Assembly: GCA_964468315.1 (NCBI GenBank)
Contig: CAYXTA010000001.1
Coordinates: forward strand, 193 to 64,192
DNA: 64,000 bases
Direction: 5' to 3'
Source of the DNA: an uncultured Candidatus Saccharibacteria bacterium
GTDB taxonomy: Bacteria > Patescibacteriota > Minisyncoccia > Phycocordibacterales > UBA9973
Shown here: one piece after another, positions 14,883 through 32,272 of the stretch
Layout: the number at the start of each line of letters is the position of its first letter
Position numbering within the stretch: position 1 is the first letter of the stretch
The notes under the pieces: model-generated
What the model was told of the DNA's origin: nothing
What the model saw: the letters and a program-made list of their open reading frames with translations, nothing else
The model's database searches: none
Program-made: the position numbers and the translations under genes

Positions 14883-14920
14883 ACCTTTAATTTTGTACCC
14901 TGTTATATTTTAACATACCA

Positions 14921-14936
14921 TTGCGGTATACTGCAA
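14921..14936. promoter_or_regulatory. imperfect palindrome upstream of the HTH gene (candidate controller operator)
   Basis: ttgcggtatactgcaa is a near-palindrome centred on gtatac, about 20 bp upstream of the 14956 ATG. Confidence 0.3.
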
Positions 14937-14955
14937 CAAGGAGTAAACTCAATGT

Positions 14956-15162
14956 ATGAAAAGTGAGTCAAAAAAACTGGGAGGAAATCTAAAAACCATC
15001 CGAACTACAAAGGCAATATCACAAGGTGATATAGCGCGATCACTCGACGTTAGTCGAGGGTTTATTAGTAATATTGAAAATGGCAAAACCAACCCAACAC
15101 TTGAAACAATCGCAAGATTGGCAAAAGCTGTTGGTGTATCAACTAACGAGCTTTTGAAATAA
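14956..15162 (+). CDS. XRE-family HTH regulator (restriction-modification controller-like C protein)
   Basis: 68 aa. ISQGDIARSLDVSRGFISNIENGKTNPTLETIARLAKAVGVSTNELL is the canonical HTH_3/XRE fold. Lies immediately upstream of the restriction/helicase operon. Confidence 0.75.
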   Translation: MKSESKKLGGNLKTIRTTKAISQGDIARSLDVSRGFISNIENGKTNPTLETIARLAKAVGVSTNELLK

Positions 15163-15166
15163 TTGA

Positions 15167-18100
15167 ATGATAAAGAATTTCAACAATAAGACAGAAAAGG
15201 TTGGTGATGACCTAAAAAATACTATTAAAAAAGGCAGTAAACTTGATATTGCTGCTGCTATTTTTTCTATGTATGGATTTGAGAGCTTAAAAACTGAATT
15301 AAAAAATATTGATGAACTTCGTTTTATTTTCACTGATCCTACTTTTATTGAACTTGATAAAAGTAAGCGTCAAGAAAGAATGTTTGAAATTCTTGCAAAC
15401 AATAGAAAAAAAGCCATAGGAGGGTCTGATTTTGAAATAAATTTAAAGAACGAACTTAGAGGTAAATCTATTGCGAAAGAGTGCAAAAAATGGATTGAAG
15501 ATAAGGTAAAATTTAAAACAAATAGAGCTGGTGGATTCATCCAGCCTCAGTTTATTGTTCGTAATGAAGATGAATCAATTTTGTATAGTGGTATAAATGA
15601 ATTTAGTAGTTCTGGTGTGGGGTATGAAAAAGATAACTCTATTTTAAATATGGTAATGAAGTCTGATGATTATCAGACAACGCATGAGTATATTAAAAAT
15701 TTTGAAGAAGTATGGAATGACGAAAAATCATTAAAAGATGTTACTGATGAAGTCCTTGGTTATATTTCAAATATATATAAAGAGAATTCTCCTGAATTTA
15801 TTTATTACATAACACTCTATAATATTTTTGATGAATTTTTGGAAGATATAACAGAAGATGAATTGGCTAATGAAAAAACAGGGTTTAAAGAATCTGCTGT
15901 TTGGCATATGTTATACGATTTTCAAAAAGATGCTGTTTTGGGAGTTATTAATAAGCTTGAAAGACACAATGGTTGTATCTTGGCAGATAGTGTTGGATTA
16001 GGTAAGACTTTTTCTGCACTCGGTGTCATTAAATACTATCAAGAGAGAAATAAGAGTATTCTCGTTCTTTGTCCTAAAAAGCTCAGCGACAACTGGCAGA
16101 CTTTTCTTTCAAATTACGAAGACAATCAATTATATAAAGATAGATTTAATTACGATGTTTTATATCATACAGACCTTTCTCGCGATAAAGGGTTTTCAAA
16201 TGGTAAAGATCTTTCTCGTGTAAACTGGGGCAATTATGATTTGGTTGTAATCGACGAATCACATAACTTCAGAAATAATGATCCAAGAAAAGATAAGATA
16301 ACTCGATATCAGAAACTTTTAAATAATGTAATGAAAGCAGGAGTAAAAACAAAGGTCCTAATGCTCTCTGCTACTCCTGTAAATAATAAATTTACTGATT
16401 TAAAGAATCAAATAGCTTTGGCTTATGAGGGACATACAGATGTAGTTGATGATAAAATGGATATTACTAAATCAATTAATTCTATTTTAAATCAAGCACA
16501 AAGGACTTTTAATGACTGGTTAAAATTACCAGTAGAAGAACGTACTGGAACAAATCTTTTGTCTGAGTTGAATAAAAACTTCGACTTTTTTAAACTACTA
16601 GATAATATTACTATCTCAAGAAGTAGAAAACATATCATGAAGTATTATGATACTTCTGCTATTGGTAAATTCCCAAATAGATTAAAGCCTATTACTTATC
16701 GTTCGGATATTACTGATATAGAGGGATTTATGAAGGTAGATGAATTGTATGAACAATTGACCAGATTAAATATGGCCATGTATTCTCCTTTTGATTATAT
16801 TCTTCAAGATAAAATACAATTCTATAATGAAACTTATGATACTCAAATTTCAGGAAATTCGAGTTTAAAACAGTCTACTCGTGAAAAAAGTTTACAGAAA
16901 CTAGTGAAGATAAATTTTCTTAAAAGACTAGAGAGTTCTGTGGATTCATTTCGTATTACTTTGGAAAAATTTGTTAATGCAGTTGATGCAACTGTTAAAA
17001 GCATTGATGAGTTTGAAAAAACAGGAGTTAATAGTATTACAGAAGCTACCCAAATAAATGATTCTGGTTTTGATGAAGATGAGGAGAATGAAGATTGGCT
17101 TGATGATGAATTTAGTTTCGGTGGAAAAGTAAAAATAAACCTTGCGGATATGAATACTGCTGGTTGGAAGGAAGACTTACAATTTGACTATAAAATAGCA
17201 AAAGCAATTCTTGATGAAATGAAGCGTGTTACTCCAGAGCATGATTCTAAACTAAAAGATCTTCGAGATTTTATTACACATAAGATAAAAAATAATATAA
17301 ACCCAGATAATAGTAAAGTGGTAGTTTTTACAGCTTTTGCTGATACAGCAAATTATCTTTATGAAAATATATCTACTTGGGCTAAGGATACTCATGCACT
17401 AGAATCTGCTCGTATTACTGGTGGTGGAACCAATAAATGTACCCTCGATATAGATAGTCAATTTAATAACTTATTAATACATTTTTCACCACGATCAAAA
17501 GGTCGTCATGAAAAGTATAAGGACCACAAAGAAATCGATATTTTAATTGCTACTGATTGTATTTCAGAAGGTCAGAACCTTCAAGATTGTGATACTCTCG
17601 TAAACTACGATATTCACTGGAATCCTGTGCGTATAATCCAACGCTTTGGGCGTATTGACCGTATTGGATCTATTAATACTGATATACAGCTCGTAAACTT
17701 CTGGCCACAGATATCACTTGATGATTATATTAATCTTAAAAACCGCGTAGAGGGTCGTATGCTCCTTGTAGACATGACAGCAACTGGAGATGACAATGTG
17801 CTTACAAATCAATCTTCGGATATAGATTTTAGAAAACAACAATTAGAAAGACTTCAAAATGAAGTTGTGGATATTGAAGAAATGGATTCTGGTATTTCTA
17901 TTACAGATTTAGGACTAAACGACTTTCGTATGGATTTGGTGAATTACATTAAGTCTGGCCAAAATTTAGAAGGTTTAGCAAATGGTATGCATGCGGTATG
18001 CCCACAAGCACCAGAAAAAGGAGTAGAAAAAGGAGTTATCTTTGTATTAAAAAATATCAACAATGAAGTAAATATTGATAATACAAATCAACTTCATCCG

Positions 18101-18427
18101 TTTTATTTAGTATATATAAATGAGCAAGGGCAAGTTATTTCAAATCATCTTAATGTAAAAAATACTTTAGATATCTTACGTTCTATCGCTAAAGGTAAAG
18201 ACGAGCCTATTCCTGTAGTTTATGAATTATTTAACGACGAGACAGACGATGGTAAGAAGATGGATAAATATTCCAATCTTTTGAGTGAGTCTATACAATC
18301 AATCATCCATGTAAAAGATGAATCAGATGTAGATAGTTTATTTAGTGTTGGTGGTACTACTGCACTTATGAATAGTATAAAAGGTCTGGAAGATTTTGAA
18401 TTAATTAGCTTTATGGTTATTAAATAG
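15167..18427 (+). CDS. SNF2-family helicase/ATPase (SNF2_N + helicase C) with uncharacterised N- and C-terminal domains
   Basis: ILADSVGLGKTFSALGVI (motif I), VIDESHNFRN (motif II DEXH), LSATPVNN, and C-terminal ILIATDCISEGQNLQDC...HWNPVRIIQRFGRIDRIGS (motifs IV-VI). Confidence 0.85.
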   Translation: MIKNFNNKTEKVGDDLKNTIKKGSKLDIAAAIFSMYGFESLKTELKNIDELRFIFTDPTFIELDKSKRQERMFEILANNRKKAIGGSDFEINLKNELRGKSIAKECKKWIEDKVKFKTNRAGGFIQPQFIVRNEDESILYSGINEFSSSGVGYEKDNSILNMVMKSDDYQTTHEYIKNFEEVWNDEKSLKDVTDEVLGYISNIYKENSPEFIYYITLYNIFDEFLEDITEDELANEKTGFKESAVWHMLYDFQKDAVLGVINKLERHNGCILADSVGLGKTFSALGVIKYYQERNKSILVLCPKKLSDNWQTFLSNYEDNQLYKDRFNYDVLYHTDLSRDKGFSNGKDLSRVNWGNYDLVVIDESHNFRNNDPRKDKITRYQKLLNNVMKAGVKTKVLMLSATPVNNKFTDLKNQIALAYEGHTDVVDDKMDITKSINSILNQAQRTFNDWLKLPVEERTGTNLLSELNKNFDFFKLLDNITISRSRKHIMKYYDTSAIGKFPNRLKPITYRSDITDIEGFMKVDELYEQLTRLNMAMYSPFDYILQDKIQFYNETYDTQISGNSSLKQSTREKSLQKLVKINFLKRLESSVDSFRITLEKFVNAVDATVKSIDEFEKTGVNSITEATQINDSGFDEDEENEDWLDDEFSFGGKVKINLADMNTAGWKEDLQFDYKIAKAILDEMKRVTPEHDSKLKDLRDFITHKIKNNINPDNSKVVVFTAFADTANYLYENISTWAKDTHALESARITGGGTNKCTLDIDSQFNNLLIHFSPRSKGRHEKYKDHKEIDILIATDCISEGQNLQDCDTLVNYDIHWNPVRIIQRFGRIDRIGSINTDIQLVNFWPQISLDDYINLKNRVEGRMLLVDMTATGDDNVLTNQSSDIDFRKQQLERLQNEVVDIEEMDSGISITDLGLNDFRMDLVNYIKSGQNLEGLANGMHAVCPQAPEKGVEKGVIFVLKNINNEVNIDNTNQLHPFYLVYINEQGQVISNHLNVKNTLDILRSIAKGKDEPIPVVYELFNDETDDGKKMDKYSNLLSESIQSIIHVKDESDVDSLFSVGGTTALMNSIKGLEDFELISFMVIK

Positions 18428-18428
18428 C

Positions 18429-19046
18429 ATGAACTTCAATTTACCCCAGCAGGCATATTTACACAGATTTATACCAAAGAATAAATTCTCTGATAAAACT
18501 GAAGTTAATACAAAGCTAAAAAAAGAATTTACAGATCAAATACAGAAAATAATTTGGGAATATAAATTAGCTCCTAGTACTGTTGGTATATCTGCCACCG
18601 AAAAAGTTGAAGAAATTCAAATATTTGAAATTCAATTAAAGGAAAAAATAATACCTAAAAATGTATTAAAAATTATAGACAAAGCTATCCCGTATCCTAT
18701 TTTATATGTTTTTAAATACGAAGGACATTATGCTTATGGTATTACCTTAAAAGAAGATAACTCTCAGAGATATTACTTCTCAGAATGGGATGAGAAAAAG
18801 GAATTTAATTTCTTTGGTATCGACCTGGAACACGTGTACCAAGGCTTAGTTACCAGTTTTATTGGTATTCGCCAGAAGGGTCAAGATTTTGCTACAATAG
18901 TAAATACAGATAAACAAATAGAATCCTTAGAAAAAGAGATCAATGCTCTGAAAAACAAGGTCAAAAATGAAAAGCAATTCAACAGAAAAGTAGAGTTAAA
19001 TAAGGTATTAGCAGAAAAAAAGAAGTCGCTCAAGTCTATATTATAA
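18429..19046 (+). CDS. small uncharacterised protein, DUF4391-like (tentative)
   Basis: 205 aa with C-terminal coiled coil. AIPYPILYVFKYEG resembles, from memory, the conserved YPI motif of the DUF4391 family, which co-occurs with SNF2 helicases and methyltransferases. Not verifiable here. Confidence 0.4.
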   Translation: MNFNLPQQAYLHRFIPKNKFSDKTEVNTKLKKEFTDQIQKIIWEYKLAPSTVGISATEKVEEIQIFEIQLKEKIIPKNVLKIIDKAIPYPILYVFKYEGHYAYGITLKEDNSQRYYFSEWDEKKEFNFFGIDLEHVYQGLVTSFIGIRQKGQDFATIVNTDKQIESLEKEINALKNKVKNEKQFNRKVELNKVLAEKKKSLKSIL

Positions 19047-19067
19047 ATTATCAATAACATCATTATT

Positions 19068-21005
19068 ATGAAAAAACTAGCAATGCAAACACCAGACCTT
19101 ACAGAAGGTAATATTACAAAGATAAAAGAACTATTTCCTAATGTAATTACTGAAAAGGAAGGTCCTGATGGTGTTATTGAAAAGGCCGTAGACTTTGAGC
19201 TTCTGAAGCAGATACTTTCAAAAGAGCTAGTGGAAGATGATAATGAGCGTTATCGCCTCGACTGGCCTGGTAAAAAAGCTTCACTTTTGAAAGCGAATAC
19301 CCCTATTACTAGCACACTTCGTCCAGACAGAGAAAGTAGTGTTAATTTTGATACAACTGAAAATGTGTTCATAGAAGGCGATAACTTTGAAGTTTTAAAA
19401 GTCCTCCAGGAGTCATATTTAGGAAAGATAAAAATGTGCTACATTGACCCCCCATACAATACGGGAACTGCAATGATTTATAGTAATGATTTCAGTAAAA
19501 CAGAAGAAGAATATGATGAAGAAATGGGTGCGGTTGATGAAGAAGGTATCAAAATGTTCAAGAATACTGACAGTAACGGTCGCTTTCATAGTGATTGGCT
19601 TAGTATGATGTATGAAAGGATTGTTGTAGCTAGAGATTTGTTAACAAATGATGGTTTTATGGCATTGGCTATTGATCATAATGAGTTACATAATTTAATA
19701 TCAATTTGTGATGAAATTTTTGGTGAAAATAATAGAGTGGGAGTAATCACTGTAGTACATAAACCAGAAGGAAGAAATCAAGAGAAGTTTTTTGGAACAA
19801 GTAATGAATTTATGCTTGTTTATTCAAAAAATAAAGATGAAGCAAATTTTAATGATGTTGTTTTAGATGATTCCCTTGCTGAGTTATTTGACTCAAACGA
19901 TGAAAGAGGAAAGTTTAAATTAAAGAATTTTATTAGATTGTCGGATGGTAAATATAGTTTGAGAGTTAATAAACCACATTTTTATTATCCTGTTTATGTT
20001 AATGGTGACTTTACAGAAATTTCACTAAGTCAAAAGGATGGATTTATCGCAGTCTATCCAATAACTCAGGCTGGGCAAGAGAGAACATGGAAAACTACAC
20101 CAGAAACATTAGTAGATAGATTTAATAAAGGTGATTTAATATTTACAAAAAATAAGGATAATGAGATAGAGCTTTTTGAGAAACTTAGAGAAAATCAAGT
20201 TATTAAAACACACTGGATTGATAAAAAATATCACGGTTATCATTTTGGTACAAAAATCATTGATTCACTATTGGGAGATAAAACATTTGATTTTCCAAAG
20301 TCATTATTTTTAATGAAGGATGTTTTAAAAATGATGGCATCAGGTGATGATATTATCTTAGATTTTTTTGCTGGATCAGGTACAACAGCACATGCTACTA
20401 TTCAGTTAAATGTAGAAGATGGCGAAAATAGAAAATTTATTATGGTTCAAATTCCAGAAAAAACAGAGAGTGATTCTGATGCATACAAAGCGGGTTATAA
20501 AACTATTTCAGAAATTAGTATGGAGCGTATACGTAGGGCAGGCAAAAAGATTGTAGAGGAAAATGCAGAAAAATTAAAAGAAAGAGAAACACCGTTAGAT
20601 ATTGGATTCCGTGTGTATAAGACTGATACAACAAACATGAAAGATGTTTACTATCATCCGTCTGCCGTCAACCAGGATGATTTGTTTAATCACGTTAGTA
20701 ATATAAAAAATGACAGAACACCAGAGGATTTGCTCACTCAGGTAATTCTTAACCTTGGGCTAACCTTAGACCTCCCAATAGAAAAGAAAAATATAAAAGG
20801 TAATGATGTTTATTTTGTCGCAGGTAATGCACTCGTTGCTTGTTTTGATGACAAGATTGATTTTGGGATCGTGGAAGAAATAGCAAAGTCTGAGCCGTTA
20901 AAAGTCGTATTCAAAGATGCAAGCTTTAAGGAAGAACAAGATAGAACAAATGTCGAAACAAAATTCAAGAGGTTGTCTCCGGAAACAATAATCACTGTAT
21001 TGTAA
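19068..21005 (+). CDS. Type III-like DNA methyltransferase (Mod; beta-class N6-adenine/N4-cytosine methyltransferase)
   Basis: CYIDPPYNTG (motif IV DPPY) lies N-terminal to ILDFFAGSGTTAHA (motif I FxGxG). This order is the beta-class permutation typical of Type III Mod. Confidence 0.85.
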   Translation: MKKLAMQTPDLTEGNITKIKELFPNVITEKEGPDGVIEKAVDFELLKQILSKELVEDDNERYRLDWPGKKASLLKANTPITSTLRPDRESSVNFDTTENVFIEGDNFEVLKVLQESYLGKIKMCYIDPPYNTGTAMIYSNDFSKTEEEYDEEMGAVDEEGIKMFKNTDSNGRFHSDWLSMMYERIVVARDLLTNDGFMALAIDHNELHNLISICDEIFGENNRVGVITVVHKPEGRNQEKFFGTSNEFMLVYSKNKDEANFNDVVLDDSLAELFDSNDERGKFKLKNFIRLSDGKYSLRVNKPHFYYPVYVNGDFTEISLSQKDGFIAVYPITQAGQERTWKTTPETLVDRFNKGDLIFTKNKDNEIELFEKLRENQVIKTHWIDKKYHGYHFGTKIIDSLLGDKTFDFPKSLFLMKDVLKMMASGDDIILDFFAGSGTTAHATIQLNVEDGENRKFIMVQIPEKTESDSDAYKAGYKTISEISMERIRRAGKKIVEENAEKLKERETPLDIGFRVYKTDTTNMKDVYYHPSAVNQDDLFNHVSNIKNDRTPEDLLTQVILNLGLTLDLPIEKKNIKGNDVYFVAGNALVACFDDKIDFGIVEEIAKSEPLKVVFKDASFKEEQDRTNVETKFKRLSPETIITVL

Positions 21006-21012
21006 TATTTAT

Positions 21013-24000
21013 ATGAAATTACAGTTTAAACAGCAACAATATCAAGCAGATGCCACAAATGCAGTGGTGCGGGTTTTTGATGGTCAAGAAAAAGGGGTTA
21101 GGAAGGAAGTGGTGGGAAGAGTTAAAGCAAATGATTTGTTTCAGAAGACTATGGTAGAAGAAATTTTTTCAAATAAAAAACTTGATATTGATGAAAAACA
21201 AATACTTACTAATGTGCAAGAACTCCAAAAAGAACAAGGAATAAAAGTTGGTAAAAAATTAGAGGGTTTAAATTTTACCGTAGAAATGGAAACAGGTACT
21301 GGTAAGACGTATGTTTACACCAAAACAATGTTTGAGCTAAATAAAGAGTATGGCTGGAATAAGTTCATAATTATGGTCCCCTCTGTTGCTATTCGTGAAG
21401 GAGTGAATAAGTCCATGGAAATAACGGCAGATCATTTTCAGGAAATATATGGTAAAAAAATAAGATTCTTTATTTATGATACAAAGAATAAGACAAATCT
21501 AACTAATATAAAATCTTTTGCAAATACATCGAATATTGAAGTGATAATAATGAATTATCAAGCTTTCGGACGAACAAGTAAAGATGCCTTGAAAATGTTC
21601 CAAAAGCTTGATGAGATGCAGTCAGAAAAGCCTATTGATGTTATCAAGCGTGCCCGCCCAATATTGATTATCGATGAGCCACAACGTTTTGGTCAAACAG
21701 CACAATCAATGCTTCCTGAATTTAACCCACTTTTTATTACTCGATATTCTGCAACACATAAAGAGGATTACAATAAAATATATCGTCTTGATGCTATTGA
21801 TGCATACAACCAAAAACTAGTTAAAAAAATAAGAGTAAAAGGGATAGAAGTAAAAGGTAATTCTGGTACGAATAGTTACTTATTCCTAGATAGAATACAT
21901 GTAAGTAGTAATGCATACCCTACCGCTACTGTGCAGATGGAGATAGAAACAAAACAATCTGGTGGAATTAAGAAGACTTTAAAGAAAATTAAGGAGGGAG
22001 ATAATTTATTTGCTGTCTCTGGTGAATTGGCTCAATACGAAGGATATCTTGTAAAAGAAATTAATGCACGTACGAATACCGTTTCTTTTACCAATGGGAT
22101 TTCAATATCAGTCGGTCAAGTCCATGGAGATGTAGATGAGCTACACATACGAACAATTCAAATACGTGAAGCAATAGCATCACATATAGAAAAAGAAAGA
22201 GAACTCTATACCAAGGGAATTAAGGTCCTCACCTTATTCTTTATTGATGAGGTTGCAAAGTATCGTGCTTACGATGATAAAGGAAAACAAATACGCTCAG
22301 AGTATGAGGAAATATTTGAATATGAATACAAACAGGCCATATCACAAAGAGATTTGTTTAATGATGAATATTATAAATACCTAGATTCTTTTGATGTATC
22401 AAAGGTTCATAATGGATATTTTTCTGTTGACAATAAAGGGAGAGCAGTAAATTCTAAAGAAACTCGAGGTCAGGATGGTAGTGACGATGTAAATGCATAT
22501 GATCTTATTATGAAAAATAAGGAACAATTACTGAGCTTCAAAGAGCCGACTCGTTTTATTTTTTCTCACTCAGCACTTCGTGAAGGATGGGATAATCCAA
22601 ATATTTTTCAAATATGCACACTAAAGCATAGTGAATCTACAATAAGTAAACGTCAAGAAATAGGCCGTGGACTTCGTATTGCTGTAAATGATCAAGGAGA
22701 AAGAATGGATCATAGTGTTCTTGAGAATGAATTTTTTGATATCAATACATTGACTGTTATTGCAAGTGAATCATATGATACTTTTTCAAAGCAATTACAA
22801 GGCGAAATTTTAGACACATTATCTGATCGCCCAAGTAGCCTAGAAGTTGGTGTATTCAAAGACAGGATTCTAAAAAATAAAGACGGAGAGACTTTTGTTT
22901 TTGACGATAAACATACTATGGATTTAATATTTATGTTTAAGGAAAAGGGTTATGTTGATAGTGATTACAAAATTACAGAAAAACTAATAGAGGCTATTGA
23001 TTCAGATACAGTTGAAATACCTGTAGTTCTTGTAAATTTTAAAACAGAATTGGTAAATATGATTCAAAAAGTGCACGCAACAAATACCTTTAAATCTTCA
23101 GAAGATGATCGTGCTAATAATGTAAAAGTATCTATTTTAAAACCTAATGAAAACTTCTTCAAACAGGAGTTTAAGGATTTATGGAATAAGATAAAAATAA
23201 AGACAGTATATGATGTTTCTTTTGATGGTAAAGAACTAATTGAAAAAAGTATCAAAAGTATCGATGCTACGCTAGATGTAAATAAAGCTACTGTTAGAGT
23301 TACTATTGGTGAGCAAAAAGACAATATAACAGAAGAATTATTAAAAAGTGGTGAGTCTATTTCAAAAACAAGTAATCAAATAGAGAAAACTGAAAGTATT
23401 TTAGGTTCAATTAAATATGACATTATAGCTGAAGTCGCAAAGGGTGCAAATATAACAAGAAAAACATCAGGTGAGATTCTTGGTAAAATGAACAAAATCA
23501 AATTTGCTTTGTTCAAGGTGAATCCCGAGCATTTTATTCGTGAGGTTGTTCGTCATATTAATGAACAAAAAGCAGCAACTCTTATAAATAATATAACTTA
23601 CCACAAGCTCGACAGTGTATATGAAGATGACATTTTTACTGTAAATAATTTCCAAGGAGCACTTGATAATAATGTTCTAAAAGTAAACAAGCATATTTAT
23701 GAATACGTGAAGACTGATTCTAAAATAGAACGTAAATTTGCAGAAGAAATGGATCTCGAAGGTAGTAAAGTCCTTATATACGCAAAATTACCTAACGGCT
23801 TTAAGATTCCTACTCCAATAGGTAATTATAATCCGGACTGGGCTATTGTATTTGATAGTAAGGATATTAAATATATCTATTTCATCGCTGAAACAAAAGG
23901 TAGTATGAGTACACTACAACTAAAAGGATCTGAATTACAAAAAATAAATTATGCTAGAAAACATTTTGAAGCATTGTCGTGTGCTGATTTGAAATACGAT

Positions 24001-24045
24001 GTTGTAGATAGTTACGAGAGTTTAATGGAAAAAGTAATGAGGTAA
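21013..24045 (+). CDS. Type III restriction enzyme Res subunit (helicase-nuclease)
   Basis: METGTGKTYV (Walker A), ILIIDEPQRF (DEAH-like), FIFSHSALREGWDNPNIFQIC (helicase motif VI region), and a long C-terminal domain. About 1000 aa, as for Res. Confidence 0.85.
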   Translation: MKLQFKQQQYQADATNAVVRVFDGQEKGVRKEVVGRVKANDLFQKTMVEEIFSNKKLDIDEKQILTNVQELQKEQGIKVGKKLEGLNFTVEMETGTGKTYVYTKTMFELNKEYGWNKFIIMVPSVAIREGVNKSMEITADHFQEIYGKKIRFFIYDTKNKTNLTNIKSFANTSNIEVIIMNYQAFGRTSKDALKMFQKLDEMQSEKPIDVIKRARPILIIDEPQRFGQTAQSMLPEFNPLFITRYSATHKEDYNKIYRLDAIDAYNQKLVKKIRVKGIEVKGNSGTNSYLFLDRIHVSSNAYPTATVQMEIETKQSGGIKKTLKKIKEGDNLFAVSGELAQYEGYLVKEINARTNTVSFTNGISISVGQVHGDVDELHIRTIQIREAIASHIEKERELYTKGIKVLTLFFIDEVAKYRAYDDKGKQIRSEYEEIFEYEYKQAISQRDLFNDEYYKYLDSFDVSKVHNGYFSVDNKGRAVNSKETRGQDGSDDVNAYDLIMKNKEQLLSFKEPTRFIFSHSALREGWDNPNIFQICTLKHSESTISKRQEIGRGLRIAVNDQGERMDHSVLENEFFDINTLTVIASESYDTFSKQLQGEILDTLSDRPSSLEVGVFKDRILKNKDGETFVFDDKHTMDLIFMFKEKGYVDSDYKITEKLIEAIDSDTVEIPVVLVNFKTELVNMIQKVHATNTFKSSEDDRANNVKVSILKPNENFFKQEFKDLWNKIKIKTVYDVSFDGKELIEKSIKSIDATLDVNKATVRVTIGEQKDNITEELLKSGESISKTSNQIEKTESILGSIKYDIIAEVAKGANITRKTSGEILGKMNKIKFALFKVNPEHFIREVVRHINEQKAATLINNITYHKLDSVYEDDIFTVNNFQGALDNNVLKVNKHIYEYVKTDSKIERKFAEEMDLEGSKVLIYAKLPNGFKIPTPIGNYNPDWAIVFDSKDIKYIYFIAETKGSMSTLQLKGSELQKINYARKHFEALSCADLKYDVVDSYESLMEKVMR

Positions 24046-24059
24046 AAATTAAATAAATT

Positions 24060-25208
24060 ATGGTAGGAAAAAATAAAAAACTAAATAAAATTTTACCAGA
24101 TAATCTTAAAAAAGAAGAGGAACGTCCTAAATGGACAGATATGAATGATGTTCTTAAGGTCTATAAGTATTACAGTAAACAGTATAGTTGGATGCATCTT
24201 GTTGTTGCTCAGAATAAATTTTCAAAGAAAAAATATCTTCGTCTAAAAAAATATTTCAATTGGTTTGCCATTCCTGATGCTGGTTATTTGGCAGTACTTC
24301 AGAATATTTTAAAAAAGGGAGCTCAAGAGCTTGAGTGGAAATATAAAAATGATTTAGAAGTAAAACTTGAAGAAGTAACAGATAAAAAAGAAAAAAGGGA
24401 TATATTAAAATCAAATAAATCGAGTGGAATTCCAGAAGAAATACTTGAATTTATACAGAAATTTCCTGACTTTACAAAAAAACTTATTTCACTTGATTTA
24501 GAAAACAAGAAATTAGAAGAAATACTTGAAGTTATGAATATGACTGCTGATGCTATTTCTGTTTCTGGTGATCGTTTTCGAATAGCATTTCAGGAGTTGC
24601 TTGGAAAGATTTCTAAAGAAGAACCTAAAAGTATGATGGAATTATCTGATTTAATGGAAAAATATAATTTGAATCAACTTACTTCACTTTTAAATATAGT
24701 AAAATCACGACTACAAACCATTGAAACATTTGAGCAAATGATTCACAACGATAAAACTTATGAAATCAGAGGCGATAAATCTGTACATCGTGTATTAGAA
24801 AATAGTATGTGGCTAGTCGATGATAAATACTGGATTGTGTCTTCGAATAAATCTCTTCGTGATTTTATTGGTGTAGGTATGGAAAAAGAGGATAAAAAAT
24901 ATAAAAGCAAAAGACCTGATTTTGTTTGTGTAGATCATGATAATAAAATAATAATATTGGAAATTAAAAGACCTTCAGTCGAATTAAAAAAAGAAGAAAT
25001 AGATCAAGCTGTTTTATATTTACGAATGATAAAAAAATATCACTCACAGAAAAAACCAGTCGAAGTCTACTTAATAGGTAATACAATTTCAGAAGAAGCG
25101 AGAGATATAGCAGAACTAATGCCAACAATAAAATTACAAACATACCAGGAATTTTTAGAAAAATGTAGAGCCAGATATAAGCAATATTTAAATATAGTAG
25201 AAGTTTAA
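24060..25208 (+). CDS. hypothetical protein with C-terminal PD-(D/E)xK nuclease-like core
   Basis: RPDFVCVDHDNKIIILEIKRP gives PD-x13-ExK. N-terminal 250 aa unassigned. Confidence 0.4.
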   Translation: MVGKNKKLNKILPDNLKKEEERPKWTDMNDVLKVYKYYSKQYSWMHLVVAQNKFSKKKYLRLKKYFNWFAIPDAGYLAVLQNILKKGAQELEWKYKNDLEVKLEEVTDKKEKRDILKSNKSSGIPEEILEFIQKFPDFTKKLISLDLENKKLEEILEVMNMTADAISVSGDRFRIAFQELLGKISKEEPKSMMELSDLMEKYNLNQLTSLLNIVKSRLQTIETFEQMIHNDKTYEIRGDKSVHRVLENSMWLVDDKYWIVSSNKSLRDFIGVGMEKEDKKYKSKRPDFVCVDHDNKIIILEIKRPSVELKKEEIDQAVLYLRMIKKYHSQKKPVEVYLIGNTISEEARDIAELMPTIKLQTYQEFLEKCRARYKQYLNIVEV

Positions 25209-25212
25209 TTTT

Positions 25213-26718
25213 ATGAAATTAATTTCTAAATCAAAATTCTTAGACTATCTAACTTGCCCTAAAGATGCATGGTTTAGAATGCATAAGCCAGAATTGAAAG
25301 AATTTGAAATTTCTTCTGGGCTACAAAACACATTTGACCAAGGTTATGAAGCTGAAGAATATGCAAAACAATTAAAAGTATTTTCTGGATTTATAGAAGT
25401 CACAGCTAAAGGAGTTGATGTAAAAAAAGAAGTTGACTCATTAATAGAGAAAAAGGTTCCAGCCATTTATCAGCCGACATTTATTGCAGATGGATTTATT
25501 ATTCGTTGCGATATGCTCGTCTGGGATTCAGAATCTTCTAAATGGGATTTGTATGAAATAAAATCATCAACAAAAAGACATGATACAGGGGCTCGAGATC
25601 ATCTGTCTGATGCAGCTTTTCAGGCAATAGTTTTGGAACGCTATGGAATCTCGGTTGGTAAAATATTTATTGTTCATCTAAATAGTGAATATATAAAAAA
25701 TGGAGAAGTAGACATTGAAAATCTTTTTGTGCTAAATGATAGCACTTCTAAGGTTACAGCAAGAAGAGTTACCGTAGCTCCAGAAATGGAAGAAGCCAAA
25801 AAGTATCTTAATCAAGAAACTGAACCAAAGAATGGTTGCGATTGCATATATCGCGGTCGTAGTAGTCATTGTGCAACAACACACATTTCATACCCTAGTA
25901 TTCCTGAGTACTCTGTTCATGATCTTTCATACATTGGAAAGAGTCCTGATAAATTGAGAAGTTTAATAGAGAAAGGGATATATCACATACATGATATTGA
26001 AGATGCTTCTAATTTGACTGACAAGCAACAAAATCAAGTAATGGTGCATAAATCAGATACTGAAATGATAGACAAGGAAGAGATTGAGAATGTTCTGAAT
26101 AGCTATACCTACCCTTTATATTTCTTTGATTATGAGACTTATGCCCCAGCTATACCTATCTATGATGGGTTTTTCCCATATCAAAGAATTCCAATTCAGT
26201 TCTCTTTACATGTTATTGATAAAAAAGGTGGAGAAGTACGCCATGTGGAATATTTACAAACTGAAAATATAGATCCGTCGGAAACCGTGGCAAAAATGTT
26301 AAGTGAGAATATAGAACCAGAAGGAACAATTCTCGCATGGAATGTTGGTTTTGAAAAAAGTGTGACTACCGAACTTGCCTTACGGTTGCCAAAGTACAAG
26401 AATGTTTTAACTAGAATATGCGACCAAATGCAAGACTTAATGGATATATTTTCCAATCAACATTATGTACATAAAGGTTTTAAAGGTAGAGTAGCCATTG
26501 AACCAGTAATGAATACACTACTTCCTGAAATGACATATGACCACTTACCTTACACAGGAGCAGATGTTGGGTATGTATGGTGGAGTGATATAGTTAATGA
26601 AGGTAAAGAACCAAAAACAAGAGATGAAAAATTACATTTACTTTTGGAGTATTGTAAACAAGATACTTTTGTTATGGTGGAAATTTTCAGGATACTTAAT
26701 GAGATTATCAAGAAGTAA
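25213..26718 (+). CDS. RecB/Cas4-like PD-(D/E)xK nuclease fused to DEDD-like exonuclease domain (DUF2779-like, tentative)
   Basis: N-terminal C15 plus CDCx8C Cys cluster. DGFIIRCDM...LYEIK (D...ExK). YFFDYETYAP resembles exonuclease motif I; compare FVDIETTGL in the DnaQ-like ORF at 54715. Confidence 0.45.
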   Translation: MKLISKSKFLDYLTCPKDAWFRMHKPELKEFEISSGLQNTFDQGYEAEEYAKQLKVFSGFIEVTAKGVDVKKEVDSLIEKKVPAIYQPTFIADGFIIRCDMLVWDSESSKWDLYEIKSSTKRHDTGARDHLSDAAFQAIVLERYGISVGKIFIVHLNSEYIKNGEVDIENLFVLNDSTSKVTARRVTVAPEMEEAKKYLNQETEPKNGCDCIYRGRSSHCATTHISYPSIPEYSVHDLSYIGKSPDKLRSLIEKGIYHIHDIEDASNLTDKQQNQVMVHKSDTEMIDKEEIENVLNSYTYPLYFFDYETYAPAIPIYDGFFPYQRIPIQFSLHVIDKKGGEVRHVEYLQTENIDPSETVAKMLSENIEPEGTILAWNVGFEKSVTTELALRLPKYKNVLTRICDQMQDLMDIFSNQHYVHKGFKGRVAIEPVMNTLLPEMTYDHLPYTGADVGYVWWSDIVNEGKEPKTRDEKLHLLLEYCKQDTFVMVEIFRILNEIIKK

Positions 26719-26719
26719 T

Positions 26720-26851
26720 ATGGACGAAGAAACATTTGAAATAGCAAAAGAAAATGATTTAAGTCTTGAGGAAGCTGAAGAACTTCGGGACTTTGCTGAC
26801 GAGAATGACATTGAAGTAGATGATGCTTTAGAAATTTGGCAAGATTTATAA
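26720..26851 (+). CDS. small acidic protein (43 aa)
   Basis: MDEETFEIAKENDLSLEEAEELRDFADENDIEVDDALEIWQDL. Track ORF 26597.. overlaps the upstream gene; ATG 26720 follows its stop. Confidence 0.3.
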   Translation: MDEETFEIAKENDLSLEEAEELRDFADENDIEVDDALEIWQDL

Positions 26852-27118
26852 AAAGATGCTATAATATAAGTGTTACAGAAGTAACACTTAGTCTATGAGT
26901 TTATATAGACCATACGAGGTTCCCTTGAATGGGTAGGTGAATTGGGAAATCTGCGAGGATCCAAATACCTTATATGACTGATTGCCAAAGGCGGTTGGGA
27001 GATTTCATTAAGATTGTCGAATCTTGATCAAAACTCTTAGTCGCTTTTTTCTTTGCCTAGTCAGCAGATCAAAGCTCTCAGGGTATTATTAAATTAAAAA
27101 TAATAATATAATAAAAAT

Positions 27119-28000
27119 ATGATATACACAAATAAAATACAAAAAGCTATAGAACTCGCAATACAAACTCACGAGATAGATGATAAACAAAAAAGGAAAG
27201 GCAAAGATATACCGTACATTACGCACCCGCTTTCTGTAGGGCTTATACTCGCTACAGCAGGGGGTACAGAGGATGTGATAGTCGCTGGTATACTCCACGA
27301 TACTATTGAAGATAGTACAGTTGAAAAGAAAATCACAAAGGAAATGATTGCCGAGCAATTTGGTGATAATGTAATGCAATTAGTCCTAAGTGTTACAGAA
27401 CAAAATAAATCCTTGTCCTGGGAAGAAAGAAAAGCCGAAGCGCTTGAGCATATAAAAACATTTTCACACGATTCACTGCTATTAAAGTCTGCAGACATAA
27501 TTTCAAATACAACAGAACTTATTTCTGATTACCAAATAGAGAGAGAAGAAACTTTTGATAGGTTCAATGCCCCAAAAGAAAGAATTTTAAAAGGTTATAC
27601 TGATTCTATAAATGCTATCTTGTATAAATGGTCAGAGAGTCCTCTTGCTGAGGATCTAAAAAATGTATTAGGAGAAATAAAAAGTATGACAGAAAGTAAA
27701 GAAGAAGTTGAATTTTATCTAAATTCAGAAGAATTAAAAGAAAGGCGTATTGTGTACGTTGCTTGTGAAGATGAAGAGAATTGTGGTTTTATTGTGGAAT
27801 TCAAATTTCCTAATTGTACTTTTTTCTTCTGTAAAGAACACAAAATGGGATTTAATATTGATTTAAATACTGTTACTGATGATGGCGTTTTGTGTAAACA
27901 GCATAATGAAATGGAGCGCTACAATGTCTTGACAGAAGATAATGTTTGCCCAGTATGCGAAAAGAATACCCTTGCAATACTTTCTGCTAGAATTAACTAA
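27119..28000 (+). CDS. HD-domain phosphohydrolase, RelA/SpoT-type (p)ppGpp hydrolase-like (SAH) with C-terminal Cys-rich zinc ribbon
   Basis: YITHPLSVGLILATAGGTEDVIVAGILHDTIED (HD motif with the His-Asp pair). C-terminal CxxC...CPVC. Confidence 0.7.
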   Translation: MIYTNKIQKAIELAIQTHEIDDKQKRKGKDIPYITHPLSVGLILATAGGTEDVIVAGILHDTIEDSTVEKKITKEMIAEQFGDNVMQLVLSVTEQNKSLSWEERKAEALEHIKTFSHDSLLLKSADIISNTTELISDYQIEREETFDRFNAPKERILKGYTDSINAILYKWSESPLAEDLKNVLGEIKSMTESKEEVEFYLNSEELKERRIVYVACEDEENCGFIVEFKFPNCTFFFCKEHKMGFNIDLNTVTDDGVLCKQHNEMERYNVLTEDNVCPVCEKNTLAILSARIN

Positions 28001-28047
28001 AAAATTAAAAATTTGGCAGGATCTATAAAAAGGTCTATGATAGGGGT

Positions 28048-28938
28048 ATGGAAGGACTAACATTTAAAGAAAAAATTATATTGGAAAAAACAAACAAATT
28101 CTTAAAAAAACACAAGCCGTCTTTTGTATTGACTGCTATTGTTATATTGAGTGTTTTAATCGGCAATGCCATCTATTTTTCTATTTGGCCGTCTGACGAT
28201 AAGACCCTTTTAAGTTCTTTGACTGATATTGAGAATGACAACTGCTCTGTAGTAGGTATTAATTTACATGGAACTTTACTAACATATATTGCACCTCATT
28301 CTGAAAGTGACCCCCTTTTTAATTATGATTCCGTAGCTAGTGAAGATATATATTTTAAAATTAAACAAGCAAATGAAGATGAAAGTATAAAAGCAATTAT
28401 ACTGGAAGTTGACTCTGGTGGAGGGTCTGGAATTGCTGGTGAAGAGGTTTCAAATATTATTAAAAATAGTGCTAAACCTGTCGTAGGATGGATAAGAAGT
28501 GTAAGTGCGTCGGCGTCGTATTTTGCTGTAAGTAGTGCTGATAGGATATTTGCCTCAAAATTTTCTGATGTTGGAGGAATAGGTGTGACCGCTTCTTATT
28601 TAAGTAATGTAAAAAAGAATCAAAAAGATGGCTTAAATTACGAGCAATTGATTGCAGGTAAATATAAAGATTCAGGAAGACCTGATAAGCCACTTACAGA
28701 AGAAGAAAAGAAATTATTTTTGAGAGATATAAATATTGGGTATGAGAACTTTATGAAAGCTGTTTCCGCGAATCGTAATATACCAATTGAAAAAGTTAGA
28801 GAAATTGCTGATGGTTCAACAGTGATGGGAGAGCAAGCAAAGGAACTTGGTTTGATTGACGAGATTGGTGGAATTAATGAGGTTGAAAAGTATCTTGAGG
28901 AAACAATCGGAGAAAAGCCAGAGATTTGTTGGAAGTAA
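28048..28938 (+). CDS. sppA: signal peptide peptidase SppA-like serine protease
   Basis: N-terminal TM. IKAIILEVDSGGGS...ASYFAVSSADRIFA resembles the SppA/ClpP-fold catalytic region. Confidence 0.7.
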   Translation: MEGLTFKEKIILEKTNKFLKKHKPSFVLTAIVILSVLIGNAIYFSIWPSDDKTLLSSLTDIENDNCSVVGINLHGTLLTYIAPHSESDPLFNYDSVASEDIYFKIKQANEDESIKAIILEVDSGGGSGIAGEEVSNIIKNSAKPVVGWIRSVSASASYFAVSSADRIFASKFSDVGGIGVTASYLSNVKKNQKDGLNYEQLIAGKYKDSGRPDKPLTEEEKKLFLRDINIGYENFMKAVSANRNIPIEKVREIADGSTVMGEQAKELGLIDEIGGINEVEKYLEETIGEKPEICWK

Positions 28939-28960
28939 TTTAATAATATAATATTTAACT

Positions 28961-29413
28961 ATGAAAAATAACCGTAACAGCGTATTAACAGGAGTAACTG
29001 GCGAATATTATGTAGCCGCAGAACTTTCTCGTATGGGATATATTGCTTCTATCACTCTCAGAAATACTAAAGGGGTAGATATTCTGTGTTCAAACTCTGA
29101 CGCGACGAAAACTGTTAGTATACAAGTAAAGACTGGATCAGAAGTTAAGAGCACTTGGATTCTAAGTGAAAAGTCAGAAAAATATTATGCACAAAAACTT
29201 TTTTATGTGTTCGTAACTTTGAGTAAAAATTTACACCCAGAGTATTCTATCGTACCAAGTAAAATCGTTGCTGATTTCATAACTAAAAATCACAAAAATT
29301 ACCTAGGTTCTCTTAGTAAAAAGGGCAAAGAGCATAAAGATAGCTCTATGAGAAAGTTTATTGATTTGGAGAAAAAGTATTTAAATAGGTGGGACTTATT
29401 AGGTCTTAACTAG
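28961..29413 (+). CDS. hypothetical protein, restriction-endonuclease-like fold (tentative)
   Basis: EYYVAAELSRMGY...GVDILC...IQVKT shows an E / D / QxK spacing reminiscent of PD-(D/E)xK. Confidence 0.35.
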   Translation: MKNNRNSVLTGVTGEYYVAAELSRMGYIASITLRNTKGVDILCSNSDATKTVSIQVKTGSEVKSTWILSEKSEKYYAQKLFYVFVTLSKNLHPEYSIVPSKIVADFITKNHKNYLGSLSKKGKEHKDSSMRKFIDLEKKYLNRWDLLGLN

Positions 29414-29500
29414 GTAGGTATGGGTATTATACCACAATTTAATCTAAAATGCAAGTATTTTTTACCATACAAATTAAGCTCTTTTTGATATAATCCATAT

Positions 29501-30073
29501 ATGGCAGATGAAATAGACACTAATACCCAAACGCCTCAAACTGAGCCTCTAGAGGTGCCAAAATTGGCACCAGAAGCAACTTCTGAAGCTCAAACGGCTC
29601 AAATACCATCAAGTGAGCCGTTGGCTACTGAACCCGAGCTAATTGCAACACCAGAAGTAACGTCTGAACCTTTGCAAACTTCTGGCGAGGTAAAAGCCGA
29701 GCCAGAGAAAGAAGAAACGGAAATCCCTGAATCAAAACACGAAGATCAAACTTCTTCACAATCTGAGACTCAATCCCAACCCACTACTCCACCACAGGAG
29801 GCAACGCCTCCTGTGGTAATAATCCCTCCTGTAAATAAAATTCGTGAACTTCTTGCGAAAGCCAGAAATGCAATTCAATTTAGAAAAAGAAAGAAACTAG
29901 AAAAAATCATGAACATGTTCACGAAGCGAACAAATGTAACTAACGACGAAGTTGAGAAACTTTTGCATGTCTCTGATGCCACTGCAACAAGATATCTCAC
30001 TATCCTCAAGAAAGAAAACAAGATTAAACAATCTGGAAAAACAGGGAAAGGAGTTTCGTATTCTAAGATTTAA
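29501..30073 (+). CDS. Pro/Thr/Glu-rich low-complexity protein with C-terminal winged-helix
   Basis: N-terminal 110 aa acidic PT-rich. C-terminal VEKLLHVSDATATRYLTILKKENKIKQSGKTGKGVSY is HTH-like. Confidence 0.4.
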   Translation: MADEIDTNTQTPQTEPLEVPKLAPEATSEAQTAQIPSSEPLATEPELIATPEVTSEPLQTSGEVKAEPEKEETEIPESKHEDQTSSQSETQSQPTTPPQEATPPVVIIPPVNKIRELLAKARNAIQFRKRKKLEKIMNMFTKRTNVTNDEVEKLLHVSDATATRYLTILKKENKIKQSGKTGKGVSYSKI

Positions 30074-30284
30074 CCAAATTTTTTTGAATCAAAAAATGCA
30101 ACCTTAACGCTGTGGAAAAATAGTAAAGATATGGATTTATGATAACCTTGTTGTATTCATATTGAGTTATCTTTAACTTTACGCTATCAACTTGATAATA
30201 ATACTGACCATTGTCTTCAATAGCTTCTGCAAAATATTTAAAATTATTTCCTAACAAACAAATCTTTAGTGTAACTACTTTCAT
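30063..30284 (-). CDS. hypothetical small protein
   Basis: 73-aa ORF with no supporting features. Confidence 0.2.
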   Translation of the reverse strand: MKVVTLKICLLGNNFKYFAEAIEDNGQYYYQVDSVKLKITQYEYNKVIINPYLYYFSTALRLHFLIQKNLVKS

Positions 30285-30489
30285 AAAATAAAAAATTCCT
30301 TAAATAATAAGGAAAGGTTTTTTGCGTGGACTAGACACAAACTTATCTTTCCCATATGGGTTGGATTTAGCACCTTGCATTTGTAGGTTGCTGGATGGAT
30401 TACTGAGCCAATTCTCTAACCACCACTCTTGATATAAACTATTAAGTTGTAATTTAATTCTATCAATAAAAAAGAATAAGAGCAAATTT

Positions 30490-31215
30490 TATAGGGAGCA
30501 GAAGTTGCCTACGCGCACGGGTGGGTGGAGTGTGTGCGTACTCGCACACACTCGGGGCAAGTATTTGCATTTGCACCTCGGGCATTTCCGCTATGTGCGT
30601 CCATGGCTGACGGATGAGCGCCGACCCTATATTGCAATACTAAAGGTAAATAGCGAAGCGACACACTAACATCTAATCTGATAAAGCGTAGAGTGGGGGT
30701 GGCGAGGGTGGACCGCTGTATTCAGCGACACCCGACCCGGGGAGAGGAAACTTCCTCTCCCCGAGAAGCGCGGGCAATCTACTAAACGGCTCATCCTCTG
30801 GTATTTGAGCCGTTTAACTATCTGGTTTGCCCGCTCATAGGCATGTAGGCGTGAGTAGCCATAGCGGAAATGCCCGAGGCGGATGCCGAGGGTGATACCT
30901 ACCGACAGACAGGACAACACATCGAGAAAGGAACGAGGTACAATATTGAATTTGTATTTTTGAGTTATGCCCGCATTCCTCCCAGACCCTCCTGCGTGCC
31001 AAACCAAACCGAAACCCCGCCGAATTTCAAAAAAGAATATGCCGAGGTTTTGCGAAATCGTATCCCAGAGAATATAGCTTTCGCAAAACCGAGTCCGCAT
31101 TGGGTCTAAGCGCTTCCGTCTTTTCCTTTTAGGAAAAGCACCACGCTTGGCGTGGTGGCGCTTCAGCGCAACGGATGCGCTTAATCACTTTGCTTCTCGA
31201 AAAAAGTTCGCGCAA
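30490..31215 (-). ncRNA. GC-rich structured element (candidate large ncRNA or ORF-less mobile RNA element); contains inverted repeat B right copy
   Basis: About 725 nt and clearly GC-richer than its surroundings. Many hairpins (for example ggggagaggaa actt cctctcccc, and gagtgtgtgcg tact cgcacacactc). A 20-nt long-range pairing joins 30574-30593 and 30863-30882. ORFs in it (30666..31100 minus, 30870..31109 plus) have foreign composition. Strand uncertain. Confidence 0.35.
30958..31215. repeat. inverted repeat B, right copy
   Basis: Reverse complement of 14619..14882. Ends ...taattagcgcacaa at the island/chromosome junction. Confidence 0.85.
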
Positions 31216-31270
31216 AGCGTATAATTAGCGCACAAATTTATATATAATAACTTAAAAAATTAAGTACTTT

Positions 31271-32272
31271 ATGGAATCATTAGAAAATAATAATATATCT
31301 ATTGGTGGGCAGAAAAAAGTTGAAGAATATGTTGATCGTATTAGAAATGGAGAATCTGAGGACCTTATTTTTAAAGATCTTCCAGAATCTTTTAAAAATG
31401 GTATTAAAAAAATACTTAATGAATCTGTAGAAGAAAAAAATAAAAGATACGAGTCTGAACAAAATAGAATTGAAGAACTTAGAGAACAACTTGGTGCTAA
31501 AAAATCAACAGAAAAGATAAATTTATTAGATATTCAAGAAAGAAAAAAACTACAAGGATGGACAGCTAGTTATGAATTGGCAAAAATTGCAAAACAGCAG
31601 GGTATTGATTTATCAAAAATTTCTAGAGAAGAATATGTAAATTTCGCAATACAAAATTCTTTAGCTATTGATGACGATCAGTTAAGGGTTGCACCATGGC
31701 AAAGAATGGGTACTTCTGTCGAAGAAATCGTTTTAGAAAACAGAAAAAGAAAAGCACAAATAAAAGAAGAATCTGAAAAAGAGTTTGCAAAATTTTGTTA
31801 CGAAACACAACAAAAAGCAGGCCAAGAAAATCGTTTTATTTCAGAAAATATTAGAATAAGACAAGGTACAAAAGATTCTAATTCCTGGCTGTTTTTCGGG
31901 ATCAATAACGGAACTGGAGAAAAAAGTAATGAAACTTATAAATCGTATGTTTCTGTTAAAGATTTGAATACTTTAACCCCTGAAAGATTTACACAATTTA
32001 TGACAGCTCTTAGGGATGCAAAATATAATGGTGATATCAAAATTTTCCAAGATTTATCAGAGCAAGGTGTTAGATTAAATGATCAGATTGTTATGCATGG
32101 AGGTTCACAAACAGATGCAGAACTTGGTTTGCAAGTTGCTGAACAATTTTTCGGTACAGATTTAGACCAAAAGAGTCTAGGAAAAGATGAAGTTATCAAT
32201 GGAGAGAATAAAAGTTATAGTCAGATTCTTGCATTAAAAATTTCAGAAGCTGTAAATAAAAAAACCGCTTAA
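31271..32272 (+). CDS. hypothetical protein
   Basis: 333 aa, charged with coiled-coil-like N-terminal half. No family recognised. Confidence 0.45.
   Translation: MESLENNNISIGGQKKVEEYVDRIRNGESEDLIFKDLPESFKNGIKKILNESVEEKNKRYESEQNRIEELREQLGAKKSTEKINLLDIQERKKLQGWTASYELAKIAKQQGIDLSKISREEYVNFAIQNSLAIDDDQLRVAPWQRMGTSVEEIVLENRKRKAQIKEESEKEFAKFCYETQQKAGQENRFISENIRIRQGTKDSNSWLFFGINNGTGEKSNETYKSYVSVKDLNTLTPERFTQFMTALRDAKYNGDIKIFQDLSEQGVRLNDQIVMHGGSQTDAELGLQVAEQFFGTDLDQKSLGKDEVINGENKSYSQILALKISEAVNKKTA

Follow-up and report, generated by a model that had tools for sequence, protein, structure and literature searches.

A structured RNA and a recombinase repeat arm side by side in a probable mobile element of a Saccharibacteria bacterium

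A stretch of 64,000 nucleotides from an uncultured Candidatus Saccharibacteria bacterium (GenBank assembly GCA_964468315.1, contig CAYXTA010000001.1, positions 193 to 64,192; hereafter the window) contains, at 30490-31215, a GC-rich and highly structured block. What is this block, and why does it lie in the surroundings of an integrase and tRNA genes? A first-pass annotation, made from the sequence alone, had taken it for one unit of about 725 nt, either a large non-coding RNA (ncRNA) or a retro-element without an open reading frame (ORF). The analysis described here shows that the block is made of two units side by side: a structured RNA, designated C, and an arm of an inverted repeat, designated B, that belongs to a large serine recombinase (LSR). 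Probably, a mobile element of ~18.3 kb (12955-31235), run by this LSR, is integrated here, and the block, with C and B, is its far end.

Composition of the GC-rich block

The enrichment in G and C is real, with values of 0.43-0.58 in 200-nt windows from 30400 to 31199, against 0.26-0.33 on either side and ~30% for the genome. The hairpins named by the first-pass annotation are present at 30528-30538/30543-30553 (11 bp), 30738-30749/30752-30763 (12-nt arms) and 30783-30793/30806-30816 (11 bp); the hairpin CACCACGC/GCGTGGTG was placed at 31139-31157 by a consensus scan, and an extra one of 12 bp, previously overlooked, is found at 31046-31057/31079-31090. A perfect long-range complement of 20 nt, earlier given as 30574-30593/30863-30882, lies 2-3 nt off, at 30576-30595/30860-30879, and 100 shuffles led to an expectation of zero chance matches for it. 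When the structure of 30480-31230 was predicted for the two strands separately, z-scores of -7.7 (+) and -6.7 (-) were obtained against dinucleotide shuffles. Over the whole block, the minus strand folds better than the plus strand (-308 vs -297 kcal/mol), because B is C-rich on the plus strand.

The absence of a credible ORF, also proposed previously, holds, since only ORFs of 40-144 amino acids occur inside the block. The one of 144 amino acids straddles the boundary between C and B and has no Pfam match, so a coding explanation was rejected; another of 54 amino acids, located behind the motif AGGGAG, was discarded as coding because its homologues show non-triplet indels and early stops. A decayed coding region, which had been named as the alternative that could account for the GC enrichment, is rejected, and a covarying RNA structure is found instead.

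The idea of a single unit of ~725 nt had to be abandoned. The block is composite, since its right-hand 268 nt recur in inverted orientation 16 kb away, whereas the left part, the only one that contains the conserved RNA, is unique in the window (limits of both units in Table 1). This bears directly on the proposal of a single minus-strand RNA of ~725 nt, representing a group II intron without an ORF or another kind of retro-element, for which the GUGCG at the start of the minus strand and the slightly better folding of that strand could be adduced. Such a reading can practically be discounted: GUGCG is the reverse complement of the repeat end plus the crossover core (…TTAGCGCAC/AA), the right third recurs in the region upstream of the LSR gene, and the asymmetry of wobble pairs described below puts the RNA on the plus strand. 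Moreover, there is neither a domain V/VI nor an associated reverse transcriptase, and no intron model was matched at E<=10 in a cmscan of 29900-31700.

The same search against Rfam 15, run with permissive filters and covering GOLLD, ROOL, HEARO, OLE, raiA, introns, RNase P and transfer-messenger RNA (tmRNA), gave no family at E<=10, and none reached its gathering score for C in the window or in seven loci with homologues. ARAGORN found no tmRNA, so that the earlier statement that tmRNA and RNase P signatures are absent is maintained. The phage and plasmid collections searched with the block by BLASTN returned nothing; of two scans of viral contigs with block sequences, one had no match and the other yielded two high-GC chance matches lacking C, the LSR and the winged-helix gene that precedes C. 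The suggestion of a large ornate RNA is thus upheld in one part, as a large ncRNA supported by covariation lies on a probable mobile element, tied to a recombinase and a tRNA gene as had been supposed; the other part falls, since GOLLD, ROOL and HEARO give no match and the likeness to the first two is one of analogy.

The C RNA family and its neighbourhood

Homologues of C come from one metagenome scan with the invariant 19-mer CCCGAGGCGGATGCCGAGG, which marked at least 120 loci. Among the matches listed, 86-90 of 120 loci carry a full-length C, in hosts of 31-55% GC, the rest being high-GC chance matches; further homologues were found in loci L009, L010 and L213-L219, and the full-length total is at least ~95 Patescibacteria loci. 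Compensatory changes in the 5' hairpin and in the long-range helix are already visible among the window, L009 and L010.

The covariation check was performed on an alignment of 60 copies with mutual identities below 93% (mean 65%), in which RNAalifold and an independent column-pair scan recovered the same helices. In the resulting structure, with 50 pairs in seven helices, 97.3% of the cells are paired, as opposed to 35-51% after a shift of the partners by 1-3 columns. Both sides have changed in 28 of the 50 pairs (229 cells), and none of 500 shuffles reaches any of the observed measures. The 19-bp long-range helix contributes seven pairs with changes on both sides, and helices 5, 6 and 7 contribute three, five and four compensatory pairs, respectively; in the 5' domain, all five hairpin pairs tested and all three closing pairs show compensatory changes. 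The strand under constraint is the plus strand of the window, because G·U and U·G pairs (131) far outnumber A·C and C·A pairs (11) on it. C is therefore read as an RNA transcribed from that strand, single-stranded DNA of the same strand being less probable.

Conservation at the level of primary sequence is also high, with invariant runs such as CCCGAGGCGGAUGCCGAGGG in 60 of the 60 copies and a GNRA-type hairpin, AGCGAAAGCG. A helix closing the 5' and 3' ends of C was not recovered, duplex folding giving -15.6 kcal/mol against -16.0 for shuffles, which does not improve on chance. Neither this RNA nor its element was found described in literature searches. As judged from these alignments and searches, C is a new family of large structured RNA, uncatalogued in Rfam 15.

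A hairpin with the conserved sequence GAACGGCTCAtttnCTGGTATTTGAGCCGTTC (30783-30816 in the window) recurs as an optional insert within C. It is also found inside B (L031 and L034) and after C (L098, L124, L134, L174, L175 and L186), behaving like a small portable module.

Table 1. Positions of the RNA, the repeats and the neighbouring genes in the window
Feature	Position	Strand	Description
C	30485-30966	+	Conserved structured RNA of ~480 nt; profile nhmmer 355 bits, covariation, no Rfam match
C core	from AGGGAG at 30494 to ~30943	+	Followed by U-rich tail
C 5' domain	30510-30512/30561-30563	+	Stem enclosing variable hairpin 30528-30538/30543-30553; compensatory changes
C central domain	30576-30879	+	Closed by helix 30576-30594/30861-30879 (19 bp)
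Inner helices of central domain	30598-30602/30612-30616; 30618-30622/30848-30852; 30739-30748/30753-30762; 30770-30773/30831-30834	+	
Optional hairpin of central domain	30783-30793/30806-30816	+	
B, distal copy	30968-31235	+	268-nt inverted repeat, from self-comparison
B', proximal copy	14616-14883	-	98.9% identical to B; directly upstream of the 5' untranslated region (5'UTR) of LSR
Promoter-like site in B, outward	TCGAAA 31197-31202; TATAAT 31220-31225	+	17-nt spacer
Other B features	core 31230-31235	+	GTTCGCGCAAAG motif; crossover core GCACAA
Terminator-like hairpins in B	31157-31139; 31090-31046	-	Second one followed by U-run
LSR gene	12939-14498	-	519 aa; GC 40-43%
A'	14491-14621	-	LSR 5'UTR and first 8 nt of coding sequence; arm of 131-nt, 99% inverted repeat
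A	12955-13085	+	Second arm of 131-nt repeat; starts at core of tRNA-Phe 3' end, overlaps 3' end of LSR ORF
tRNA-Phe(GAA)	12885-12958	+	Last 4 nt within shared core
Winged-helix gene	29501-30073	+	190 aa; disordered acidic/Pro-rich N-terminal part, long helix, generic winged helix
XRE-type HTH gene	14956-15162	+	First gene of B-bounded segment, divergent from B'

The place and orientation of C are fixed, behind a gene for a winged helix-turn-helix (wHTH) protein and ahead of B, always co-oriented. In 27 of the 69 loci with enough upstream sequence, the co-oriented wHTH gene ends -13 to +12 nt from the start of C, reading ...TCTAGAATTTAA and then AGGGAG. Taking into account that C begins at the wHTH stop codon in most elements, both are probably co-transcribed; C would be made with this gene, or just after it, toward B. 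On the other side, the motif of the B end appears 180-440 nt downstream of C in 20 of the 56 loci with enough sequence. Past the core that follows C and B there is either unrelated DNA, as in the window, or a leader resembling repeat A and then the LSR gene (L194, L170, L187 and L203), with C, B, A and LSR being contiguous in L194.

The layout was also recovered from the opposite direction. Starting from four divergent wHTH homologues, C follows the gene in four out of four loci, and in three of them the full order tRNA/A-LSR-A'/B'-XRE, cargo, wHTH-C-B is present within 10 kb. The layout recurs with LSRs that are only 34-54% identical to that of the window.

As for the wHTH protein itself, a fold search gave only generic MarR/ArsR-type matches, and PHROGs and PADLOC only weak ones, to generic DNA-binding and Fic C-terminal domains. 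In the window, the wHTH gene is split from C by a 412-nt insertion seen only in this genome among the loci examined. It contains a 73-aa ORF (30063-30284, minus strand) without family match and, on the strand opposite to C, a borderline SAM-I riboswitch (30340-30438, minus strand) that scores 46.6 bits against a gathering cut-off of 44.4, several of its P1 pairs being non-canonical; this match is followed by a terminator-like hairpin and the 73-aa ORF.

Could C simply be a divergent housekeeping RNA of the host (RNase P RNA, tmRNA, 6S or SRP RNA), lying beside a recombinase repeat or serving as its target? Its high GC content in an AT-rich genome, like that of rRNA and tRNA genes, and the size of the winged-helix family, with 1941 clusters, would be compatible with this origin. 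We consider it highly improbable, since neither Rfam nor ARAGORN gives a match, C lies inside B, toward the cargo, in all complete elements, it is placed between XRE plus cargo and the att-like junction in elements inserted at different tRNAs (Phe, Leu, Thr, Ser and Glu), and the flanking synteny is not conserved.

The recombinase, its repeats and the proposed element

All the LSR homologues listed contain PF00239, PF07508 and PF13408 (Resolvase, Recombinase and Zn-ribbon), and Y13, R15 and S17 are invariant in 46 LSR sequences. The family comprises 6414 Patescibacteria proteins at E<1e-30, and a protein search of viral contigs gave no relatives. Eighty loci fetched with an alignment of the family were compared. 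The A pair is present in ~60 of them, its outer arm being adjoined by a tRNA gene (Phe, Leu, Glu, Ala and others). The B pair, of 150-372 nt, was found in ~25 loci with enough upstream DNA; its arms are nearly always >96% identical within a genome and divergent between genomes, and the proximal one overlaps A by 4-8 nt.

The link between these repeats is a short common core. In the window, GCACAA is located at three junctions: tRNA-Phe/A (12955-12960), B/A (14616-14621, as the reverse complement) and B/flank (31230-31235). The B/A junction is in inverted orientation, directly upstream of the LSR gene, and B' adjoins that gene on one side and the divergent XRE-type HTH gene on the other; B has the same orientation relative to the following gene in both copies. 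Twenty other loci contain the three junction types with a common core of 4-8 nt, which corresponds to the last bases of the adjoining tRNA. The XRE gene occupies the same position in L010, L017, L215 and L217.

The end of B is conserved between loci as GAAAAAaGTTCGnGCAAA..TATAAT..core, and the GTTCG in it stands ~6 nt farther away from the core than does GGTTCG in the T-arm of the tRNA, an offset that recalls the differing spacing of attP and attB half-sites of serine integrases. B may be a recombinase half-site with an outward promoter, transcription starting approximately at the core, and its minus-strand hairpins and U-runs would stop transcription that enters from outside. A strand could not be assigned to B. 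Only one of its hairpins can be aligned across loci (11 pairs, eight of them compensatory), and all of its pairs are Watson-Crick, with zero G·U and zero A·C, which would suit folding in both directions of transcription. The antisense of B folds better in 17 of 23 loci, because of the excess of C over G in B.

At the inner end of B there is a C-rich motif (GCATTCCTCCCAGACCCTCC / GGATTCCTCCCCAGACCCCTCC; 30972-30992 and 14860-14880), found in either orientation among loci (e.g., L029, L061 and L068), which suggests a putative binding site acting at the DNA level. Another peculiarity concerns the LSR gene, whose own 5'UTR, in reverse complement, supplies the last ~43 codons (repeat A; 12939-13085 vs 14491-14621), so that a full-length LSR mRNA would hold a 131-nt complementarity between its 5' and 3' parts, spanning the start codon.

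The placement of the cassette varies when different metagenome-assembled genomes (MAGs) are compared. The LSR cassette appears in both orientations beside the same tRNA cluster (L013 vs L017); in L018 and L037 a tRNA is upstream of the LSR, and the L018 cassette lies between two tRNA-Leu genes. These arrangements suggest inversions between tRNA genes driven by the recombinase; the inverted orientations were seen between MAGs, and none within one population. Public contigs of the organism studied here stop inside the block or at its edges, and metagenome contigs often end within a few hundred nt of the LSR gene or inside B or C (L001-L008, many of L008-L087, and L208), since nested and near-identical inverted repeats defeat short reads.

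In the model proposed for the element, the tRNA-Phe/A junction would be attL-like, the B/flank junction at 31235 attR-like, and B/A an intact attP-like site that would also hold the LSR promoter. When mobile, the element would form a circle in which B-core-A is present twice, as inverted repeats, in the manner of the yeast 2-micron plasmid. Integration via one of them would split that repeat, leaving A beside the tRNA and B beside the flank, and would give exactly the nested repeats observed. The LSR could also flip its own cassette and the cargo segment.

If a circle exists, C might be thought to act as DNA, as a replication origin, a primer-RNA region similar to ColE1 RNA II, or a single-strand origin. 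The att-like junctions do imply a circular form, strand-specific constraint is also expected of a single-stranded intermediate, and C is G-rich, with C-rich tracts after it where B starts. Even so, this function is very unlikely: no Rep/HUH or primase gene is found among the conserved parts, the cargo being variable; the start of C at the stop codon of a gene in the same orientation is what would be expected of a co-transcribed RNA; and the GNRA-type hairpin and the abundance of G·U pairs are typical of RNA.

Cargo genes differ between elements. That of the window (15167-26718) is a defence island with an HKD/SNF2 helicase (PADLOC C3a139, E 2e-133), a DUF4391 protein, type III Mod (E 2e-204) and Res (E 2e-290), an HSDR_N-like protein and a DUF2779/Cas4-like protein. 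In L026, a reverse-transcriptase-like ORF (3900-4480, motif YARYTDDF) lies as cargo beside the XRE gene, and the proximal B region opens with a C-like 5' module (GCGCACGGGTGGGTGG-hairpin-GGGGCAAG).

Possible roles of C and comparison with known systems

What could C do in such an element? Tentatively, the leading proposal is an RNA regulator that would be produced along with the winged-helix protein, at the end of the cargo operon nearest to att. Transcription across B and the att site would be under its control, or else the integrated, excised or inverted state of the element, possibly through a complex with the winged-helix protein. A more specific version, in which both constitute an RNA-protein module that governs the LSR, either by setting its directionality, as a recombination directionality factor that contains RNA, or by coupling excision or inversion to a cellular signal sensed by the RNA, is clearly unlikely. 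Duplex folding of C with the LSR leader was uninformative, as duplexes of long sequences are meaningless, and no complementary target of C was identified.

The next explanation in order of likelihood, arguable if doubtful, is that C is a self-sufficient ornate RNA carried as cargo, possibly multimeric, which would act in trans on a conserved component of host or phage, a mode of action suspected of ROOL and GOLLD on the host side, its att position being incidental to the control of recombination. The extreme conservation of C, with its invariant runs kept across LSRs only 34% identical, the slow evolution of C and of the winged-helix domain against the fast evolution of A and B, and the existence of many LSR elements without C, as expected of accessory cargo, all speak for it. 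Against it stand the fixed place and orientation of C, with the wHTH gene before and B after, and the lack of a match to the ROOL or GOLLD models.

Returning to a regulatory C at the end of an integrated element, several points weigh against this proposal. C is absent within 6 kb of the LSR in ~75 of the 80 LSR loci and, consequently, is dispensable for recombination; LSR loci with short cargo mostly lack it. C and the wHTH gene are thus seen as a conserved, if dispensable, end module of a widespread LSR integrative/invertible element. Furthermore, the conservation of C and of the winged-helix domain far exceeds that of the LSR, A and B, and a role directed at the host would account for this at least as well as one in cis regulation. 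For C and B, promoter, RNA ends and expression are deduced from sequence. The flipping mechanism is unaccounted for, because serine integrases are not known to recombine attL with attP, or attP with attR. Neither an excised circle nor an alternative junction was seen in the public contigs of this population, which break at the repeats.

The right-hand boundary is a further difficulty. In relatives, the flank gene (31271-32272) comes second, after a 439-aa serine recombinase, in a compact 2.9-kb module (L209-L212; 5413-8333 of L209), which lies in differing flanks and has its right end at the 3' end of a tRNA-Ser. An empty site, with tRNA-Phe joined to the flank gene, was not found, the homologues of this gene appearing only behind that other LSR, and it could not be confirmed that this was the host gene placed originally after tRNA-Phe. 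Since the flank gene belongs to a moving LSR module in relatives, the boundary may be a junction of two elements, beyond a simple attR.

With these reservations, C adds a large and well-supported class of structured RNA to the candidate phyla radiation, in which hardly any ncRNAs are characterised, and the diverse alignment of 60 members is already sufficient for a covariance model, structure probing and cryo-EM. A widespread family of serine-recombinase elements is also defined, with an unusual design of three sites and nested inverted repeats at tRNA genes and with defence cargo, in the window a type III restriction-modification system and an HKD/SNF2 helicase. The repeats explain the breaks of metagenome assemblies at these loci, and LSRs with short cores at tRNA ends may be of interest as integrases for genome engineering. 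If C were confirmed to control the LSR, it would represent a new regulatory principle and the first serine integrase system controlled by RNA, within a three-site, nested-repeat element also able to invert chromosome segments between tRNA genes.

Among known RNAs, ROOL and GOLLD are large ornate bacterial RNAs, often located on prophages and near tRNA genes, whose structures are available (PMC12286853). Like them, C is large and structured, has many conserved helices, would lie on a mobile element close to a tRNA gene and has a high GC content for an AT-rich host. Unlike them, it gives no match to either Rfam model, has ~450-560 nt, belongs to Patescibacteria and has a fixed place, with a winged-helix gene on one side and the promoter/att arm of a serine recombinase on the other. 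C also resembles the bridge RNA of IS110 and the omega RNA of IscB/TnpB (HEARO) in being at the end of an element, near the recombination site and conserved with the element. However, no guide-like variable loops tracking the target tRNA were found in C, and most elements of the same LSR family lack it, so it is no obligatory cofactor of recombination; LSRs recognise DNA through protein domains.

Structured RNAs placed beside an att site or involved in the regulation of an element have analogues in the sib retroregulation of lambda, the CI RNA of P4 and the c4 RNA of P1. As in these systems, an RNA at the end of an operon could tie the expression of the recombinase to topology; for C, with no target identified, this is purely an analogy.

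With regard to the recombinase, the domain set of the window LSR and the short common core at the 3' end of a tRNA are shared with serine-integrase elements, and a recombinase gene between inverted repeats is shared with invertible segments of the Hin/Gin type, both orientations being seen here between different genomes. In contrast to both systems, the sites number three and not two, the integrated element would keep an intact attP-like site and the putative LSR promoter is embedded in the att arm. The inverted repeats are near-identical and measure 131 and 150-370 nt, in contrast to sites of ~26-50 bp. Finally, the proposed circle, in which two inverted B-core-A repeats part the recombinase gene from the cargo, resembles the yeast 2-micron plasmid, although the circle is here deduced from the junctions, the recombinase is of the serine and not of the tyrosine type, and the element would integrate beside tRNA genes.

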